Source of the DNA: Elsinoe ampelina
Lineage: Eukaryota
Assembly: GCA_010093995.1 (NCBI GenBank)
Contig: ML992504.1
Location: forward strand, 1,102,322 to 1,166,321
Direction: 5' to 3'
DNA length: 64,000 bases
The translations under genes were made by a program, and so were the position numbers. Every line of letters begins with the position of its first letter. Positions within the stretch are counted from its first letter, which is position 1. The notes under the pieces were generated by a model. That model worked only from the letters and a program-made list of their open reading frames with translations, was not told the origin of the DNA and did no database searches. Shown here one piece after another: positions 6,400-61,390 of this stretch.

Positions 6400-7472
6400 G
6401 GCGGAGGAGGGAGGAGGGAGGAGAGGGGCAGGAGAAGCGGAGCGCTTCTCAGAGCGAGATGCTCTGGTAGTCTTTGACTTAATGTTTTGCTAAAACATTG
6501 TGCAAGAAGTTATATGATATGGGAGAGTAAGTGAGAGGGAACGTCGGTGAGGTTGAAGTTGGCCAAACGCGCAACGCGCTGCGGGAGCGGTCCCCACTTT
6601 TTCCCTTGGCGCTTAAGCTGATTCCCCGCGAAGTCACGTGTGGTAGTATCTTTCATCCAAACTACCAGGTATTTTCTACCATGCTAAGAGATCGAATCTG
6701 CTGTAACAATTTTCTGGTAGTAATTGGATTGCGTTACTACCCGGAACCATGGCACATTACACAATCCTGAAGGCACCGCATTGTGTGATCTGCTTCTGTG
6801 AGAAATCCTGTGGCAGAATTCTGGTAGTACCTGATCGGTACAACTACCAGACGTAGCAAGGCTCTTGAGAGATTCATAGCTAGATCATGGTACCACAAGA
6901 GCCTGTATTTCTCATTCCAATGAGAGGATCTGGTAGGATGACGATCAGACCTCCGACCATGCGCCATGCTTACCCGCTCGTCAATCTGGGCTGTTAAGTT
7001 TACCTGGTAGGACCTTTTGGCCTGCCAGCCTCTTCCATTTCTCTTTATTCGCAACCTGATCAACACACCTAGTAGTTCCTCTGCTATTAGAACTACCAGA
7101 CTTGCGTCACCAACAGGCAAAGGACAATGTACATCTGAGATTTGATGTGATTCGATTCATCTACGTTACATGATCGCCCCTCCCTGTCTGTGGGAAGGTT
7201 CGCGATGTGATCTAGTTAAAGCAGACTAGGTATCTTACTGCGCCAAAAGCAAAGAAAAGAAGCGCTCATCAATGATGCCCATTGATCATCAAAAGAGCAG
7301 GTATCCTCCCATCGTATCATCTCATTGCAATGCTCTCGCGTGAACAGCAAGTAGCCGACCCCGGGTATAGGTATGCATAGCTGGATGGGCGTTGACAAGG
7401 CGTGAAAAACAGTCTCAATAAGGCGTGGGCCTTGTGGTGTAGAGTGGTGGGTGGTGTGGAAGGAGGGCATGC

Positions 7473-9231
7473 TTAGTGAGGAGGCCCGTTGGTCAGAGCC
7501 TTGGTGATGCGGCGACCATCAGCACGCTTGTAGCTCATACGCAGCTTGGCCATCATGGCGTCCTCGGAAGCCTCGTCATGGTCGACAGCAGCAGGTCCAG
7601 CTTGTCCGACAGAAGGGCGAGCACCCCCGCGCATGGGAGCGCTGATGTGCTGAGTGTCGAAGACTTCGCTATAGCTGCGTTTGCCGCTCCCGTTAGGTTG
7701 CTCGTGCTGGCTGTAGCTGCGGAAAGACTTCGGGGCTTCTGAATAGGCTGGAGAGGGACCGGCGCTGTTGGGAGAAGAGGGTTCGAGCAGGCGACCGGGA
7801 ATCTGGTGGTGGTTGGTGTTGAGAGCGGGCAGCATCTTGTGGTTCGCAGTTGCTGGTCTTGAAGGTTCGTGCGCATAACCAGAATGTCTTGCATGCTCCG
7901 GGAGGTACTGTGGAGGCGGAACGTAGGCAGGTTGCACTGGGGGCTGGACTTGGCGTGGCTGAGCTGGCTGATAGCCATATGCGGGCGCTGGCGGAGGGGG
8001 AGCCGGAGCTGACCTGTACTCTGGAGGGGTGGGTGGACGCTCTGATATGCTCGAGCGCATGTGATACTGCTGGTCGTATGTAGGGTGTTGCGGTGCCTGG
8101 ACCGGAGGCTGAACGTGACCTGGATACGCATAGTACGCAGTCTGTGGGTTCTGTGGGATAGACTGGGCAGCGTAGTGAGCAGGTGGTTGCTGGACATGGT
8201 GCATGGGTTGTGGTGCGTAAGTTGGAGGTGCCTGCTGGTACTGTGGGTAGTACTGCTGCTGTGGTGGGTAGTGTGGTTGGGCATAGACGCCGGGAGCGGG
8301 AGGTGCCTGGGCGTGTTGATGGTATGAGTGCGCCATATCTTGATCCGATGGACGGCGACTATTGGAAGGTGCTAATGACCTCTGGCTGTTGACGCTGGCC
8401 GACCTCGGCCTCTGCATGTGCTCCCCACTAGATGCAGTGTACATGTCCCCAGCACCGTCACCGTACTCGTCGATTTCCTTGCCGTTCTTGTCATGCTTGC
8501 GCATACGGACATCGCGGCGAATCCTGACTCGGCAGCCCTGCTCAGCGACTAAGCGGCTCAGATCGGTGCTGGTTGCGAGTCCTGGAAACTTCTTGGCCGA
8601 GTAGACCTGGAATGGATGCGACTTGACCTCGAGACGGTGAGTGACATGACCGCCCATACCCAAAGCCTTCTCATCGTCGTCGCTGGCCTTGTCCTGGTCC
8701 TTCTCCTCCTTGAGTTCCTCATACAAGTTGAAGCTGAGACGGTACTTTCCTTCATGGCGGACAGAAAGATCTGGGAACAAGAAGTAGCCTGCAGCGGTAG
8801 GGCGGTCGAGGTATACGAGGCCAGCGACTGGAGTGCCAGTGAGAACAGTGAGACGGTTAGGGTCCTGCTGGACGCGGCCATGGGCAATGACTCTGGCTTG
8901 CTCGAGGGTAGCGAAGAGAAAGTAGTTTGCATTCATTTGGAAGGTGATGTCCTTTTCGGCGTCCGGACCCTCGAAGATGCGAAGCTCTACGATAGGTGGA
9001 GGGTCAACTGGGCGGCGATCGGCGGACGCTGCATGGCTGTGAGTTTCAACGATTATACTTGGAGGCGGTAAACTTACACTTGGCTCCGGAGCCGCATGCT
9101 CGAGCTCGCTCAGGTTGTTGCATGACCGTGAGCTTGTAGGTGATCTTCTTGCCTTCCTTGGTCATGCGGACACAGGAGGCATTGGTCTCATTTGCGACAG
9201 GAATAACCTTGTCCATGGAAGTGGTCGACAT
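7473..9231 (-). CDS. veA: Velvet regulator VeA; intron 9029-9077
   Basis: The spliced N-terminus [32 protein letters not shown], together with [16 protein letters not shown] and [29 protein letters not shown], forms a velvet domain. C-terminal MSYKRADG. Confidence 0.96.
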
Positions 9232-11042
9232 GTTGGGCCAGATATGTCCAGTCCCGAGGTGAGGTCGGAGATCCCGCGGCGGCGATAAACCAGAAAACCC
9301 AAGTGAGAAGACCAGCGAGTGTAGATTTGAATTCCGAGGAGTCGCAGTCTATAAATCGAGGTCCAGACCAGACAGAGTGACAACAGCAGCGGCTTCTTGA
9401 TTTTGAAGAACCAGATACGGTAGGTGCAGTCCTTTCTTACCTTGTGAGAAACCACGTTGATCCTCCACCACGATGCGACTCGCCCTGCGAAATGAATCGA
9501 GAGTGTCGAACTTGGACAAGCGAACGACAGACGGTAATATCGCCGACGAGCTTGCAAGTGAAATTTTCCCAAGTGATGGTGTTGTGTGTGGGAGGACGGG
9601 GAGAATTGGCGTGTGGTGTGCGCGAGGAAAAGGCTGGCGTTATGGGGAGAATGGTGTGTCTGGCAGCAATCTATGCAGCTAGATGCAATCAACCAACTCG
9701 GCGGAGCCAGACCGTGAAACCAAAAACTCACAAAAAGCACGGTCACTGCACGCGATTGGGCAGTCGAGGGCTTAGCGAGGTCTTTGTGGGTGCACACACA
9801 GCGTCGACTGTGCATGTGTTTCCCTGCAGGTGTAGCAAAGACTAGTCTTGACAAGACAAGGGCCAACACGGCTAAACAATCCCAAGGACCCAAATGGTCC
9901 CAAGAGAGAACGTGCGCCGCCCGACCACGCTAGCTCGAGGTAGTTGCTGCCGGAGGTTTGGTCCGTCGACTGTTCAGCCTGTTCCCTTGTCTATTGGTTT
10001 TCGTGTCACTTCGCGTGAGATTCATGCCGTTGCAGTGAGACGTCGATGTTAAATCTTGCTTGCCTGAAGCCGTGAGCTAAATCTATGACGGATATGACCA
10101 TACGCATGCGACAAGCAGCTTCCATACATCAGCACACACCGAGAGACTAGTGTCGCAATTCGGGTCGGCTCAGAATGTGTCTGTGTGGAGTGCGGGTGAA
10201 AACTACCAGGTGAGGTTGAGCGGGTACCACGTCATCATCACGTGCAAGCCGACTTCACCTCCTGATCAGTCCCGGACGTCACTTTTGATGCCCACGATTA
10301 CACGCTGTTTGATACATATTCATCTCTCACGATGAGTCCGTCGAATGTATACGCTGCATCGCCAACATGCTGTAGAACCATCAGATGTTCTGTCAGCGAT
10401 TGGAGGTCGATGCGCACAGGTCAGGACCCTAATGCCACACAGGTATGCGATCGGAGTGTTGCTCGTAGATGCAACTTGGGAAGTAGGTCCATCAAGAGGA
10501 GACTATACGCTACCTCGACTTAGAAGTGGTGAGCTGGTCCGTGGTGATGACCCGGGTGTCGCAGAGGCGGAGACTGGATGGACGTCGTTAGTGCCACATG
10601 AACGAATTGGTCAGATGTAGTTCTTTATTGAATCAAACGGGATTCTGCTGCTTTGCGTGCGAATATGAAGCTGCCAATCCGTGTGCGTGTGAGGAAGTTG
10701 TGAGAGTTCCATGCATGTGACCCCTGAAGTGAAAGTATCCGACACTCAGGTGCGACGAGATGCGTTCACTCAGATTACTCAAATCTTGCTGGTGGTGTTG
10801 CTGACTGTCATTGTTGACACCTGGCGATGTGTGACAAGCTGTGTAGGGCGTCATCTTCTTCGAGTGAGCAGAGGGATACGGCCACGAAAAAATGACATGT
10901 CCGAAGAATGATCTAGTGAATCGACAACAGCAAGCAACCCCCCCAAAATCAACGTGGGTAATGCCCTGCCAAGGCACTACGCTCGCATGAGCAAAAGAGT
11001 GAGAGTCGGGATCACCATTTCCGCCACTTTGCCACAAACCAC

Positions 11043-11064
11043 AAAAAAAAAAGTATTATCAAAA
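11043..11064 (-). terminator. Pol III oligo-T terminator downstream of the tRNA-Gln gene
   Basis: T4 (11061-11064) and T10 (11043-11052) on the minus strand, 23-44 nt past the final tRNA exon. Confidence 0.65.
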
Positions 11065-11086
11065 GATCAACGCCCTGACGAGCTGA

Positions 11087-11238
11087 AGGTCTGTAAATAT
11101 CAGTATTAAGTCTCAATAAGGAGCAGAGTAAGCTCACCTTACGCGGGGTCGAACCGCGGTCTCCGGAAGGTAGTATCGCTGTCTTTGAGTCACCAGCGAG
11201 CTCAGAATCCGACGTGCTAGCCGTTACACCATAAAACC
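11087..11238 (-). tRNA. tRNA-Gln(CTG) with a canonical 33-nt intron (11169-11201) and a putative 47-nt spliceosomal intron (11091-11137) in the acceptor stem
   Basis: Spliced sequence GGTTTTATGGTGTAACGGCTAGCACGTCGGATTCTGA/TTCCGGAGACCGCGGTTCGACCCCGCGTAAG/ACCT. D stem GTGT/GCAC, anticodon stem TCGGA/TCCGG (anticodon 11205-11203), T arm CGCGG-TTCGACC-CCGCG, acceptor stem GGTTTTA/TAAGACC, discriminator T. Confidence 0.88.
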
Positions 11239-12785
11239 TATTTGATGGTGGCGGGGAGCACGTCAATACATATATTATTATCCATCCGCCGGAAGCACTC
11301 CAAGCAATCCTTGCCGGAGGACTCTTCGTCGTCCGGAAGTCCGGCTCAACGCCAAGCACAGTGGGGCAATCCCAGAGAGCCCTCGTCGATTTGCAACCCT
11401 CCCGTATGCTCACTGTCATATGCTCACTGCCATTCAAGAGGGCAAGGTCTTCAGGTCGAAAGGATTGGAGACGACGGAGCACGACGCGAGCAGTCCAGGA
11501 GAGTGGTGCCACGCCTAGGCTTTGCAGGACGGTCTGGTCCCTCGAGACTGATATGGAACGCCCCTTGTAACGTGGCCACAATTGCAATACACGAACAGAT
11601 ATTGTGGCAAACCAGGCTTAAGAGATGAGAAAAATTGGTACCAGAATATGAACAGAACGGTAAGACGACAAGAAAGGTGAAAGAGACAGTATCAATACGG
11701 CCGATCAGTGTGAATGGTAATCGACCGTGAGATACAAGCTGGTTCGTCCAGGGTCGGAATACCTCATGCCACCAGTCTTTACCGGAGGTTCTTCAAGTCG
11801 ATGGCGACACTAGTTGCGGCATGATTGATGCTCTTTACACAGTGATGAGCATCACAATATATCCTCTGGCGAACACGCAGCCAGCCATCGATGACAGGCG
11901 TTGTTCTGCTTGCCTCTGAAGACTGATGGAGAGACCGAAGTGTGTAGAGGGATGAGTAAGTCCTCACCTCCTCCGCCAGACAAACGCGCTGTGTCGAAGA
12001 GCGGCGAGGGGATGCAAAAGGATGTAAGCAGACGAAGTGATTCAGTCGTTCCGGAGATCTGAGTTCCTAATGTGTTGACTGCTGTTGCCACATGGCTATC
12101 AGTTTCTCAAGAAGTAGAAAGACTTGCCTGCTTTGAACATACCTACCAGGCTTCCGCGGACGACGTGCGATGCGAAACGGACAGCCATCTTGCAGTAGAT
12201 CATTGTGCACCAATGGCCATTGGGTTACATGCACGATTGTCAAGTTCTGTGGGACTATACCATGGGAGACAGTGCCGAGCATGATGCGAAAGTTGGTGAA
12301 TGCGACGGGACAAATTATCCAGAATGCTATTTGCACCTGCAGCAAGAATATTCTGAAGCAGTCCGAAGCGGACATACGATTGGTCGAAATTTGTGAGATG
12401 GTGTGGTAGTTTATGCATGTCAGCCAAAGCTGAGGTTAGTTCGCCCAAAGGAAGCATTCAGGGTCTGTACCTGTGGGGCAAGGAAGGCCTGGCATACGGT
12501 ATGTCCGGAGGGTCGAAGACACAAATCTGTGAGAGTTATCCAGTAATTCACAACATGTGGCAAAGGAACGAGCAAGCATGTGCCGTGCCAAGCGCCGCCG
12601 CGGCGGGACGGGATGCGATACTTCGACGATGTGGATAAACAAAGGCACGACCAGTCTATAACTTTTCATCTATGACCCAAATATGAAACATGCCATCCTG
12701 TCCCGTCTTCTATACATGTTCGCATTGCGGAAAAAGTCTCTCTACATCATATACACGCCACTGTACATTGCACATTATCCTGACC

Positions 12786-14147
12786 CTAGGGGGTGACCAT
12801 CCCCTTTTTAGGCATATCAGCGGCCTTGAAGCTCGGTTTGAACTTCTTTTGGATATCTTCTTCCGAGAACTTCCTCGTTTTCGTCCTGAGCATGTCGGCA
12901 ATCTCCTTTTTGGTCATCTTCACCTGGTCCCCAATAGGTACTAAGCAGTTGGCAAGGTGGTCGTAGTCCTTTTGCAACAACTTGACTGTCATCATGAGGT
13001 AGTCGATGTTGTGGAAGACCAAGGCTCGACCCTCGCTGTACGCCTGCTTTGATTGCAGGAAGTGGACTGGGTGGTCCCTCCAGTGGCGCCGGGGGTTGAG
13101 GTGGTGAGCTGTGTGATAGCCATCATTGAAGCAGAAGCGGTTGCTTGGAACATCCAGCAAAGTGATGCTCGAGCGGAAGTCAGAGTCGGGTTCAACCTCG
13201 TCGACGAGGGCGTGCTGACCCCAATTGCCAACCATTAGTCCCAGCCGGAGTAGGGTGTATGGTATGATGAGCGTAAAGGTGGCGGCTTTGGCATGGATAT
13301 GGAAGAACATGAAGTAAAGGAAGGCGTAGCTCAACATCTCGGAGGTGAATGCGCGGACAGCGAGGCCAGTCTTCTTCTTGCGGATAAAGTACATTGGCAG
13401 ATCATACCAGACCAAGAAGAGAAATCGTCCGAGATACTGGAGGAAGTTGAACAGATCGTCACGCTGGTAGCGAATGGTCGAAGACAGGTCGTCCGGACCT
13501 GTGCATGTCAGTCAAAGTCGGTTAAGCCTGGGAGTCTTCTTACCATTGCCTTCCACATGATGATGCTTGACATGGTGGTAGTAGTAAGAGTCCCAGGTAT
13601 GGCCCATCAGGGGCTCCAAGACGTAAGGGAATGATACATCCAGCCAATACCAGTCTCTGCTCAGGACGCCACCATTGTGGATGTGGTTATGCAACATTAG
13701 TGTAAATGCACCCGCACACCAGAAAGTAAAGGCGGCATGGAGAAGGCCATGTATGTAGCTGAAGTTGAAATACAGATATATGGCGCTGGTCAGGTTTACT
13801 GATAGGTATAGCAATATATGTGTCAAGAAGACGACGTCTGTGGGGTGGCGGACTATCCGTTTGGCAACATCAGTGTAGGGCCGCACCAGGTATTTGTTCA
13901 GCCAGACGGGAACGTCTTTCTCGTCCCAGGTGGTGAAGACTGTGGGCTGGAATTGCGGACTGCTGTGATCGTTCAGGGCTTGGAGGTAGGCAAGGGCAGC
14001 GGCATCGTCGAGGTCCACTCCTTGCGAAGCTTTCTTGTCATCGTCCGCGGGATTGGCATTGGTGCTGGCCTTGGACTTGTCTCGGAAAAGGTTCTCGAGG
14101 ATGACAACATCAGACTCGGTCAAATACGGATCAATTCTCGAGGGCAT
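12786..14147 (-). CDS. Fatty-acid-desaturase-like membrane di-iron protein; intron 13499-13543
   Basis: His boxes LMLHNHIH, YYHHVKHHH, GNWGQH and GYHTAHH, with hydrophobic segments. Confidence 0.85.
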
Positions 14148-15075
14148 TGTTATTGAAGCGGTCTGGAGACGTATCAAAATTTCTCAAGTCAGCCTGCAGC
14201 ACGGTTGACAGGGCCCAATCGCGTCTCGGAACAACGTTTAGAGTTCCAGCTGCCATGTGCGAGTAACTTGCGGGCCCATGTCGAGTCAGCATCTTTCCAG
14301 AAGCTCACGCTGGGAATTATTGAATAAGATTACAGCAAAAGCATGATACCTAGGAGTACCATCCAAGAAGTCCGGACATAACGAAACACGATCGGCGGCA
14401 GGACAGATTGGGTGAAACACTTGACCAAGATGTGAGGCGGTGCCAAAAGGGTTCGAGCCCGAAGAGTCCTAAGGGCGGTTGCGGCGGGGAACGAGATGCA
14501 GATCTTTCGGCGAAATGTCGACCACGAGAGTGAGAGTGAGCATGAGATCCAGCCCGCGAACACGCATATGTCGTTGTACAAGAACCGAATCTGTGCATTT
14601 GAAATCAAGTGCCATCCTGTCTCAATTCATGACCGCACGAGTGGACAAAAGAAAGCAGAACGAGCTGCTGCGACTCATTGGCGTACGCAATCCATCCGAG
14701 TCTGCGACTTGGCGACAGCAATGCTGGCCCGTCTTTTGTCTTGTCATCAGAGGGACCAAGGGGACTGCCCGTGGAGCGTGGAGGTGATCAGATCTCCAAG
14801 CGCGGCGCATCCACACACCCACCTCATCAGTCCGTACTCTCCGCACCCGCCGCCGTCGTATTCGTACCTATTGTCTTTTGTACTGCTTTAGCGCTATTCT
14901 TCCTTCTCACACTTTACTCTGGCTGCATCACCTTCATTTCTGTACAGTGTAGACGCGACAGGCAACATTCGTCGACTTTCAAGCAGCCCTTACCGTCACT
15001 TGCACCGGCAGGGTTTCCCCATCTTGGCATACCCACACTACCACTTCGTCCTCTCTCGGTGCGCCCGGCGCGATC

Positions 15076-40357: not shown

Positions 40358-40862
40358 TCAATATACCCTCCTCGCACCCTTGACCAAATTCTCCACCACC
40401 ACCTTCATCTCATCCCTATCTTTCGCTGCACGCTTTCGATCCTCCTCCACGTCCCTAAGCTCTTTATCCAAGCGCTCAATCCTCTCGTTCTGCTCACTAG
40501 CGCTGTTGCCAATACCGGGCAGAACACCAATCAGATACTCAATCTGCTGTTCCTTGAGGACGAGGTCGCGTGCCAATTCTCTGAGACTGGCCTGAAATAC
40601 TGCTGGGTCATCGGGGACAATGTCGTTCGCTGCATCTTGCATAACTGGTTGTGTGCCATCTTCATTCTTTTGGGTCGTGGGTGCTTGATCGGGCTGGCCG
40701 GGGATAGATGCGAAGCTGTGGTGAGAGTTAATGTAGCGCAGTGAAGCGAACATCTGCGTGGCCAGCTGTGACCAATCAGCTCTGCCAATGTTATATCTCG
40801 TGAGCCCAATGATTGCATACATCATCCAGACAGTCCTGGAGCTGGGTTAGACGGTCCGCCAT
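40358..40862 (-). CDS. MED21: Mediator subunit Med21/Srb7; intron 40766-40820
   Basis: MADRLTQLQDCLDD/LATQMFASLRYI and ELARDLVLKEQQIEYLIGVLPGIG. Confidence 0.95.
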
Positions 40863-58600: not shown

Positions 58601-61390
58601 TGTCAACCGAGGTATAAGCTAGAGCGCCAAGAAGGACCCTGATTCAGTTCATCCCCTGGTGGAACTGAACACTTATCTACCACTCTACTAATTTATAATC
58701 AAATTAGATAGTTATTGTCTTAATCTGTTACTATTAAGGAGTTCTTTTAATTTAGCTATCTTTTAGTACACTAGGTTAAGTATTTATATAGTTATAATCT
58801 ACCTTATTTTAGTAGTTTAGGTAGTAATTAATCCTTTTTTCTCCCCTATATAAGTTAATAGTTATAAGCCTGGTATAACTACCCCTATATAAGTATATTA
58901 CTTAGTTGCTTTCCTACTCTATTTATTAGTTAATTCTCTACTATTTTACTTTTTAAATATTAGAATCTATTAAGAACTACCTTAACTATAACTATAGGAT
59001 TTAGGTATTAATAAAGGGATAAATAACTATAGATACTAATACCTTAATAGCTAGAATACCTATTATTCTTACTATATTAGCTAAATAGGCTAGCTAGCTA
59101 TATATTATTAAGATAAGAGCGTTAAATACTAAGATATAGAACCTTATTAATCCTTAGAAGGCTAGTAAGCTAGAAGGGCTCTCTAAGCCTTAGAGGCTAG
59201 AGGTAGTAAATACTAACTTCTTAGTACTCTTCTAGATATATAAGAAGAAATAAGTATAATATAATAAATAGTATAAGGCCTTAGCTAATTTAGCTAGCCT
59301 TATTTAGTTATTAATTGTACTATAAGTTCTTACTATTATCTAACTAGAAGGGGATTCTTATCTATAGGCTATCCTTAGGGTATTAAAGAATAGATTTGCT
59401 CTATCTAATATAGCTATTTAGCTTAAGGTTAAAGTACTCTAGAGAAAGTAGCTATTTAGCTCTTCCTTATAGAATATAGACTATTAGCTTTAGTAATAGA
59501 AAGAGGTTATAGATAAGGCTAGGAACTATAATCTACTAGAAGCTTAAGGCTTAAGGCTATAGAGAGACTTCTTACTCTCTATCTTAAAGGCTAAACTAGT
59601 ATTTACTAATAAGTACCTTATTAATCTAGATTTACTAACTCTACTAACTATACTTAAACTAATTACTAAGTTTAGATAGTTTTATAAACTCTATAAGCTA
59701 TATAGTACTATAAAGGCTAGTAAGGGAGCTACGGCCTTCCCTATAGCTACTAAGGATGTTCTTTATAAGAAACCTAGTCTCTCTAGGGAGCCTAAATATA
59801 TATACTAAGGCTAGTATAAGTAGATTAAGTACTATTACTTAAATAAGTATCTAAGGCTAGAAGGATAGATACTAAACTAGTAGACTATAAAGGAGGTTAA
59901 ACAAAGGCTAAATAATAAGACTCTTAAAGAGAGAATTAAGGCTTCTATTACTAAGGAAGTATAACATTAGAAGAAGTTAACTCTACTAGTATTAATTAAC
60001 ACAGCTATTACTATTAGATTACACTTAGCATTTATCTTAGCTACTACTAACATCTCAAACTTATAGATACTAGATTCTAGAGTAACTAATTATATCTATA
60101 ATTATACTATAAAGGACAGATATAAGATTACTAGAATTATAGAACCTTATAAGAAGCTATTCTATAGTAATACCTTACTTAGTATTAAGAGTTANNNNNN
60201 NNNNNNNNNNNNNNNNNNNNNNNNNNNNNNNNNNNNNNNNNNNNNNNNNNNNNNNNNNNNNNNNNNNNNNNNNNNNNNNNNNNNNNNNNNNNNNNNNNNN
60301 NNNNNNNNNNNNNNNNNNNNNNNNNNNNNNNNNNNNNNNNNNNNNNNNNNNNNNNNNNNNNNNNNNNNNNNNNNNNNNNNNNNNNNNNNNNNNNNNNNNN
60401 NNNNNNNNNNNNNNNNNNNNNNNNNNNNNNNNNNNNNNNNNNNNNNNNNNNNNNNNNNNNNNNNNNNNNNNNNNNNNNNNNNNNNNNNNNNNNNNNNNNN
60501 NNNNNNNNNNNNNNNNNNNNNNNNNNNNNNNNNNNNNNNNNNNNNNNNNNNNNNNNNNNNNNNNNNNNNNNNNNNNNNNNNNNNNNNNNNNNNNNNNNNN
60601 NNNNNNNNNNNNNNNNNNNNNNNNNNNNNNNNNNNNNNNNNNNNNNNNNNNNNNNNNNNNNNNNNNNNNNNNNNNNNNNNNNNNNNNNNNNNNNNNNNNN
60701 NNNNNNNNNNNNNNNNNNNNNNNNNNNNNNNNNNNNNNNNNNNNNNNNNNNNNNNNNNNNNNNNNNNNNNNNNNNNNNNNNNNNNNNNNNNNNNNNNNNN
60801 NNNNNNNNNNNNNNNNNNNNNNNNNNNNNNNNNNNNNNNNNNNNNNNNNNNNNNNNNNNNNNNNNNNNNNNNNNCTATACTTAAGCTTAGAATAGTTATA
60901 ATAAAAGGATAGAAGCTATGCTATTAAGAAGAGTAAGAGTAATTACTATCTTTGCTAATCTACTAAGAGAATTATACTCTAAACTATATAGATTAGTAGC
61001 TTATCTAATTAATAGAACACCTCTTAAGAAGCTAGACTAGAAGACTCTTTTTAAGCTAGTTTATAGATACTCTCTATTAGTTACTTATCTTAGGCTACTT
61101 AGATATAAAGCTTATACTTTAGATAAGCTTATTATAAGTAGTAATAAGCTTACACTAAGGGCTTATATTAGCTATCTAGTTAGCTATAACTTAAGTAATA
61201 TCTTTAGGATCTTTATATTAGCCTCTAAGAAGGTTATTAGAACAAGAGATATTAGATTTAATAAAACTTAGTTCTATAAGCTAGAGAAATAACCTTAGCT
61301 AAAACTAATTAGATTACTTAATCTACTAAGGCTCCTATAGAAGGTTAATAAATCTAAAAGGGTATATAAAGTAGAGGGAATAACTAAACT
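58601..61390 (+). mobile_element. RIP-mutated Ty1/copia retrotransposon: 5' LTR 58601-58860, PBS 58861-58870, gag, protease, integrase (assembly gap inside)
   Basis: LTR termini TGTCAAC and GTT(G>A)A(C>T)A, followed by GTTAT(G>A)AGCC. De-RIPped WILDSGxTDHICN (~60064-60102) and AYLINRTP..WKTPFE..HLRPLGCKAY..KLAPRAHIGYLVGYD..RTRDIRFDE (~61000-61265). Protease followed by integrase is the copia order. Confidence 0.85.
60195..60874. other. Assembly gap (N run)
   Basis: Run of n characters. Confidence 1.

Follow-up and report, generated by a model that had tools for sequence, protein, structure and literature searches.

In the textbook view, spliceosomal introns occur in Pol II transcripts and in a few snRNA and rRNA genes, and introns of the endonuclease type occur in tRNAs. 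The intron types seem wholly unrelated, and the spliceosomal ones are assigned to mRNAs and other Pol II transcripts in the part of the text available (PMC12530127). The closest known parallel to the locus described here, a tRNA-Gln(CUG) gene of the grapevine fungus Elsinoe ampelina, is the U6 snRNA gene of Schizosaccharomyces pombe, which carries an mRNA-type intron (Tani and Ohshima 1989, 1991, in PMC5855946, as far as its available text goes). As appears to be the case in the tRNA gene, a spliceosomal GT-AG intron there sits in a small structural RNA gene that is normally transcribed by Pol III and interrupts a functional helix or region, and, as we propose for the tRNA, the RNA is functional only once the spliceosome has removed the intron. 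The two cases also differ: U6 belongs to the spliceosome, which gives its intron an obvious route by reverse splicing that a tRNA does not have, whereas the tRNA gene contains a second, tRNA-type intron and its known RNA crosses T runs.

Spliceosomal introns have been listed for U6, U2, U5, U1 and rRNA genes, including the U1, U2 and U5 snRNA genes of Rhodotorula hasegawae and ascomycete rRNA genes, and tRNA is not in this list in the available part of the source (PMC5855946). The introns of R. hasegawae and of the ascomycete rRNA genes resemble the one discussed here in being spliceosomal and in lying in non-coding RNA genes of fungi, and they are thought to be lineage-specific gains.

Introns at unusual positions have been found in tRNA genes of Cyanidioschyzon merolae, nucleomorphs and archaea, including positions in the acceptor stem (PMC4090602, PMC3978253; parts available). 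Like the tRNA-Gln gene, these genes are split outside position 37/38, sometimes by two or three introns, and are missed by tRNA finders; their introns need a bulge-helix-bulge (BHB) motif and the tRNA endonuclease, whereas the insert in the tRNA-Gln gene has no BHB and carries signals of the spliceosomal kind. In the available portions of both reviews of disrupted tRNAs only BHB-dependent introns are treated (PMC4090602, PMC3978253), and the word stem 'spliceosom' is absent from the former. The sequence-only reading of this locus knew of no established case in tRNAs, and a full-text literature search, with most subscription journals outside it, agrees in having found no spliceosomal intron described in any tRNA gene. 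A spliceosome-type intron appears to be new for tRNAs and follows a known pattern in structural RNA genes.

A tRNA-Gln(CUG) gene in three exons

The window, that is the whole 64-kb stretch of DNA analysed, contains on its minus strand from 11238 to 11087 a complete tRNA-Gln(CUG) that is split by two introns of 33 and 47 nucleotides, as seen by reading the sequence and with ARAGORN (Table 1). The coordinates and letters given before for the tRNA, the 33-nucleotide intron and the 47-nucleotide insert agree with the sequence. ARAGORN places the 33-nucleotide intron in the anticodon loop at position 37/38, as is characteristic of the endonuclease type. The T arm in exon 2 (CGCGG/TTCGACC/CCGCG) is the only T-arm-like motif that a motif scan found in the 64-kb window, and the TAAG that closes this exon represents positions 66-69 of the acceptor 3' strand.

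Without the 47 nucleotides all stems pair (7, 4, 5 and 5 bp; three of the stems contain a single G-U), and the conserved tRNA letters are kept: T8, A14, the GG in the D loop, T33, the TTCGA of the T loop and an anticodon loop of seven nucleotides. The cloverleaf of a nuclear tRNA-Gln is obtained only once 11091-11137 has been removed, and the eukaryote-type G1-C72 pair and U73 are both restored by the splice.

A B box (GGTTCGACCCC) and an A-box-like element (TGGTGTAACGG) are located within the gene and the T4 and T10 runs downstream of it; the known RNA contig crosses these T runs. Judged from its letters, the TATA-like block upstream could serve either polymerase. A T-run scan found no run of four or more T between 11232 and 11065, hence none in either intron, confirming that the insert is free of such runs as had been noticed earlier; one T4 run (11236-11233) lies within the acceptor 5' strand itself.

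Table 1. Features of the tRNA-Gln(CUG) locus (positions in the window)
Feature	Position	Strand	Basis
Exon 1, tRNA positions 1-37: acceptor 5' strand GGTTTTA, D arm, anticodon stem, CTG	11202..11238	-	Sequence, ARAGORN cloverleaf, Rfam tRNA alignment
Canonical tRNA-type intron, 33 nt, one base 3' of the anticodon	11169..11201	-	ARAGORN placement after tctga
Exon 2, tRNA positions 38-69: anticodon stem 3' strand, 4-nt variable loop, T arm, TAAG	11138..11168	-	Sequence, Rfam, ARAGORN
U2-type GT-AG intron, 47 nt, between tRNA positions 69 and 70	11091..11137	-	Sequence signals, X3 contig joint, no BHB
Exon 3: A70, C71, C72 and discriminator U73	11087..11090	-	Sequence, ARAGORN, deletion scan
T4 (11064-11061) and T10 (11052-11043), candidate Pol III terminators	11043..11064	-	T-run scan
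AT-rich TATA-like block, about 28-43 nt upstream of tRNA position 1	11266..11281	-	Read directly
Downstream part of the 877-nt X3 contig, no convincing ORF	10311..11090	-	X3 contig, ORF scan

Excision of the insert in RNA

Contigs of four runs (X1, X3, X4 and X5) were aligned over 7400-14300. X1 is a DNA run, perhaps the assembly's own source and hence not independent; X3 comes from a sample and study other than those of X1, is labelled 'RNA?' and was taken as RNA solely on the ground that its contigs skip four GT-AG introns. X1 covers the whole of 7400-14300 without a joint and keeps all four introns. One X3 contig joins 11138 directly to 11090 and thereby skips 47 nucleotides with CT..AC ends on the plus strand. 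This junction contig has 877 letters, none of them mismatched, with letters 1-97 corresponding to 11234-11138 and letters 98-877 to 11090-10311 and no letter between the two parts; the joint has two letters of register ambiguity (AG/AG), and its shorter side is 97 letters long. The junction of G69 to A70 that was expected of a spliced product is present in this one RNA contig, and the insert is kept in the DNA run X1. Further stretches skipped by X3 contigs are 9029-9077 (49 nucleotides, velvet gene), 12082-12142 (61 nucleotides) and 13497-13541 (45 nucleotides, desaturase gene), and all four X3 joints read CT..AC on the plus strand, equivalent to GT..AG in minus-strand orientation.

The 33-nucleotide tRNA-type intron is retained in the junction contig, in which 11138-11234 runs without a joint. 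In RNA the insert is excised at its GT-AG borders with the tRNA-type intron still in place, a result that comes from one contig of one run and one study; contigs give neither RNA ends nor levels, and one contig need not correspond to a single molecule. No X3 contig covers 11235-11334 or 12251-12712, and the start of the junction contig, at 11234, falls four bases into the tRNA. Contigs cannot show where an RNA begins, and neither point counts as evidence here. X4 and X5 have no contig over the tRNA locus, which carries no weight either way. At 82% likeness X1 gave three records, all from the tRNA locus; short tRNA paralogues would probably escape placement, so that this has no bearing on other copies.

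An assembly error, or an X3 strain whose DNA lacks the insert, would also produce such a joint, and the uncertain independence of X1 together with the separate origin of X3 gives this explanation some room. Since the X3 contigs differ from the window by one letter in total over seven records, a strain without the insert in its DNA is unlikely. In addition, X3 skips three other GT-AG introns in or near neighbouring genes and so behaves like RNA from this strain or a nearly identical one, and a deletion with exact GT..AG borders would be improbable, so that we consider artefact or polymorphism highly unlikely. The 47-nucleotide insert is a real feature with RNA support for its excision, within what is presumably a functional tRNA gene.

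Intron class of the insert

On the minus strand the insert has the donor GTGAGC, the branch site CTGAT (with the A at 11100, nine nucleotides before the 3' end) and the acceptor CAG, and it corresponds in all points to a U2-type intron (donor GTRNGY, branch CTRAY, YAG and a length in the local range). The RNA-supported introns located up to 3 kb away are 49, 61 and 45 nucleotides long, with the signals GTAAGT...CAG, GTATGT...CTGAT...CAG and GTAAGA...CTGAC...CAG, respectively, and thus CTGAY branch sites in two of the three. The resemblance of the insert to the introns of the neighbourhood in U2-type signals and in size, suggested from the sequence before, is borne out by these three introns. 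Judging from its signals and GT-AG borders, the insert would be removed by the spliceosome.

Since Cyanidioschyzon and nucleomorphs have non-canonical tRNA introns (PMC4090602, PMC3978253; parts available), and since the joint has two letters of register ambiguity, we also considered that the 47 nucleotides might be a BHB-type intron cut by the tRNA splicing endonuclease without any spliceosome. A BHB motif is absent at the borders of the insert: in six combinations of register and offset the central helix reached at most two of four pairs, and no register gives a 3-4-3 bulge-helix-bulge. The minimum-free-energy folds of the locus contain no BHB either. With its position at 69/70 and without a BHB the insert does not have the features of an endonuclease-type intron, and it carries the full set of donor, branch site and acceptor like the local mRNA-type introns. 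This makes endonuclease cleavage highly improbable. The earlier proposal that this pre-tRNA needs two splicing machineries agrees with the exact 47-nucleotide excision in RNA, with the U2-type signals and with the missing BHB; the spliceosome as the agent is what we infer from these.

Of two donor-like sites with a spacing of five bases, GTAAGG (11142) and GTGAGC (11137), only the second is used in the RNA contig. The donor used at 11137 is the one that restores the tRNA.

Folding of the locus gave some additional observations. Inside the insert, TGAGACT (11108-11114) nearly repeats the acceptor 3' strand, and when the unspliced RNA is folded at minimum free energy this sequence is paired to GGTTTTA, the acceptor 5' strand. 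A local fold has AAGGU, at the donor, base-paired to ACCUU in the last exon, so that the two splice sites come close together. The fold z-scores were unremarkable (0.86 and -1.54).

Restoration of the acceptor stem and detection by tRNA finders

We compared the excision with other deletions in a scan of 2730 in-silico variants (start -4 to +25, length 30-120). An acceptor stem with six Watson-Crick pairs and one G-U followed by T73 was reached by the 47-nucleotide deletion only, and all remaining variants gave five Watson-Crick pairs or fewer. The 47-nucleotide deletion comprises three equivalent registers with one product, and one of the three registers has GT..AG ends. It was correct, then, that excision completes GGTTTTA with TAAGACC and adds U73, and this outcome is unique among the 2730 deletions. 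The description of the top of the unspliced stem as broken was overstated: the stem is weak, and the unspliced continuation TAAGGTG pairs with GGTTTTA at six of seven positions (three Watson-Crick pairs, three G-U and a G1.G72 mismatch). The 5' strand GGTTTTA is rich in G and U and pairs loosely with many strings. An intron-like string (GTRNG..CTRAY..YAG, 35-120 nucleotides) followed by ACC occurs at 6 of 128,000 window positions, two of them at the tRNA locus, and the chance of finding such a string with ACC at one fixed position is about 4 in 128,000.

On the native window ARAGORN found no gene with the intron mode on or off, and after removal of 11091-11137 by script it called a tRNA-Gln(ctg) with a 33-nucleotide intron. 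The large gain expected of a tRNA finder upon removal of the insert was obtained in that ARAGORN went from no gene to tRNA-Gln(ctg); it was not exclusive to this deletion, as 99 of 2091 other deletion variants were called as well. The ARAGORN call was rejected as a test of specificity, the program being lenient in this respect. In gathering mode Rfam listed no tRNA or other match for the whole window. In local or E-value mode the Rfam tRNA model matched the unspliced stretch 11134-11238 with 33.7 bits (gathering score 29), the sole tRNA-like Rfam match in the 64 kb at E-values up to 5. This score is reached by the unspliced gene because TAAGGTG still pairs at six of seven positions. The expectation that tRNA finders would miss the gene holds for ARAGORN and for Rfam in gathering mode on the window, and fails for the local or E-value mode of Rfam.

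The pairing of the native strand and the Rfam score above the gathering score are what might be expected if the tRNA worked unspliced, with TAAGGTG as 3' strand and A73 (ending TAAGGTGA-CCA), and if GT-AG excision happened only in an overlapping long RNA. Such a tRNA would have three consecutive G-U pairs, the G1.G72 mismatch and A73, features that can be compared with at least 119 metagenomic loci with a tRNA-Gln(CTG)-like 5' half, which were found by a degenerate pattern of D arm plus anticodon and served as controls. The 3' part is uninterrupted in 97 of the 119 matches listed, and in the other 22 the locus is truncated at a contig end, the T loop is odd or the match is imperfect. Among the matches listed, G1-C72 is present in 83 of the 97 and T73 in 82. 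Taken together with the rejection of the native form by ARAGORN, and with the coincidence of about 3 in 100,000 that would be needed to place ACC-T exactly behind a spliced CAG, this renders a working unspliced tRNA very improbable. None of the 119 matches listed is a relative, and the 28 letters of the window are shared by none of them; a metagenome scan with the 21-nucleotide T arm plus TAAG gave no match.

Proposed transcription and maturation of the tRNA

The reading we favour, with somewhat more confidence than doubt, is that this nuclear tRNA-Gln(CUG) gene is live and contains two introns of unrelated kinds, one of the endonuclease type at 37/38 and a U2-type spliceosomal one after G69. 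In this model the locus would be transcribed past the tRNA and the spliceosome would join G69 to A70, using the donor AAG/GUGAGC (the slash marking the splice site), the branch site CUGAU and the acceptor CAG/. A 7-bp acceptor stem with G1-C72 and U73 would form only after this splice, and RNase P and RNase Z could then release the tRNA, to be followed by CCA addition and by removal of the 33-nucleotide intron by the tRNA endonuclease and a ligase. Spliceosomal splicing ahead of removal of the tRNA-type intron is an order that fits, because the junction RNA still holds the 33-nucleotide intron. The tRNA-Gln(CUG) released by end-processing would presumably be charged and used.

The junction contig is continuous through T4, T10, T4, T4 and T6 down to 10311. 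This run-on through five T runs is easier to reconcile with Pol II transcription and a tRNA cut from a longer RNA than with a Pol III precursor, which would be short. That T10 and T6 are passed suggests Pol II as the polymerase of at least a part of the molecules. From the sequence a Pol III read-through to the T4 and T10 runs had been pictured; the lack of T runs of four or more in the insert is in accord with this picture, and the contig crosses T4 and T10, unlike a short Pol III precursor. RNAs with a tRNA or tRNA-like fold that derive from Pol II transcripts are the MALAT1 mascRNA, the tRNA-Sec of Trypanosoma brucei and the tRNAs of plant tRNA-snoRNA dicistrons. In these, RNase P and RNase Z free the tRNA fold, as the long junction RNA would require, and, unlike in the pathway proposed for the tRNA-Gln, no spliceosomal splice is known to be needed for the fold.

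The tRNA locus is flanked by genes on the same strand, a fatty-acid desaturase gene upstream and a gene for a velvet (VeA-like) regulator downstream, the protein of which is 100% identical to an Elsinoe ampelina entry, 80% to E. fawcettii and 72% to E. australis. The window therefore belongs to this Dothideomycete or to a nearly identical strain. Between 12700 and 10100 the longest ATG frames have 101 aa (spliced) and 135 aa (unspliced), with no Pfam family for those tested. For a 134-aa frame at 10633-11037 there was no Pfam family and no homologue among proteins of 73-235 aa. For the downstream part of the junction contig Rfam, run on the whole window at E-values up to 5, reported neither a snoRNA nor another RNA. 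Upstream of the tRNA, spliced RNA with no convincing ORF is seen at 11335-12198 on the minus strand; X3 and X4 both have contigs that skip its 61-nucleotide intron (12082-12142), and in X3 the stretches 11335-11594 and 11605-12001 are covered. Transcription of the minus strand seems to extend over the entire interval from the desaturase gene to the velvet gene.

A transcript of this kind might also mean that the intron is real and the tRNA dead: a long non-coding Pol II transcript, or the upstream part of the velvet transcript, would then run over a former tRNA-Gln gene into which an intron was recently gained at AAG/A. The length of the junction contig (877 letters), its retained tRNA-type intron, its passage through five T runs, the lack of a family or homologue for the ORFs of the transcript and the second spliced RNA with no convincing ORF on the same strand (intron 12082-12142, X3 and X4) are all in line with such a history. 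The proto-splice site rule is MAG/R, which AAG/A resembles, and intron gain is active in Dothideomycetes, where introner-like elements are present in many near-identical copies per genome. Since splicing of any inserted intron would restore the old tRNA letters, restoration alone is no proof of function. Against a dead gene, the exons are undecayed, with none of the 21 stem pairs and none of the conserved letters in the loops lost, and of the two donor-like sites GTAAGG (11142) and GTGAGC (11137) the contig uses the one that restores the tRNA. A search for a second copy of the insert, as expected of a multiplying intron, found none in the 64-kb window (best other match 13 nucleotides), a stretch too short to judge. 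In addition, the species must have many tRNA genes that are missed by finders, to judge from the available part of a survey (PMC8826637). On balance a dead tRNA under a real intron is the main alternative and appears to us less likely than a live one.

If the tRNA is indeed live, its acceptor stem is made only by a spliceosomal splice, two splicing systems act on one molecule and the supply of a tRNA is tied to the activity of the spliceosome. The few structural RNAs known to have acquired spliceosomal introns would then include tRNA, a point of relevance to the spread of introns, for instance by reverse splicing into abundant RNAs, and present tRNA finders would need a spliceosomal-intron mode.

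tRNA gene sets of Elsinoe ampelina and other fungi

In a survey of 459 fungal genomes with tRNAscan-SE 2.0 (score of at least 50), Elsinoe ampelina has 25 tRNA genes and 22 anticodons, with survey medians of 144 and 44, and is one of 11 species below the 30 anticodons required for translation, according to the available part of the publication (PMC8826637). Myriangium duriaei, which belongs to the same order, has 74 genes and 45 anticodons. Other small sets in this survey (genes/anticodons) are those of Cenococcum geophilum (16/16), Sporobolomyces linderae (24/18), Teratosphaeria nubilosa (25/19), Meliniomyces bicolor (26/22), Mixia osmundae (35/29) and Erythrobasidium hasegawianum (38/19). 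Reduced sets, tRNA import or super-wobble were offered speculatively by the authors in that part of the text (PMC8826637). The supplementary table gives totals only, so that Gln-CUG may or may not be among the missing anticodons.

With 22 anticodons, Elsinoe ampelina should either have functional tRNA genes that finders miss or import tRNAs, as far as the available survey data go (PMC8826637). A tRNA gene interrupted by a GT-AG intron is just the type that such a tRNAscan-SE survey would miss, and a spliceosome-type intron in tRNA-Gln could help to explain the seemingly too small number of tRNA genes in this species. More speculatively, and with clearly more doubt than conviction, many nuclear tRNA genes of Elsinoe ampelina might have been invaded by spliceosomal introns, so that much of the tRNA supply would depend on the spliceosome, perhaps with Pol II transcription and release by RNase P and RNase Z, and this would be the origin of the 25 genes and 22 anticodons. 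Widespread invasion may also have occurred in other 'minimalist' fungi, e.g. Erythrobasidium hasegawianum. The latter is, we assume, the current name of R. hasegawae, and its small tRNA set is a lead only. The published puzzle of fungi with fewer than 30 anticodons (PMC8826637, available part) becomes testable in this way.

Other observations in the window

In the desaturase gene (12655-13588), 20 of 446 and 31 of 854 letters deviate from the window in the contigs of X4 and X5, and in the velvet-gene contigs of these runs only 2 letters do. The divergence over the desaturase gene suggests a second, related desaturase gene or mixed strains in X4 and X5. The stretch 60195-60874 is a run of 680 N, masked or withheld sequence. 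At 40695-40764 on the plus strand there is a weak C/D-box snoRNA-like match to snoZ163, which with 24.8 bits (E 0.4) does not reach the gathering score of 39.
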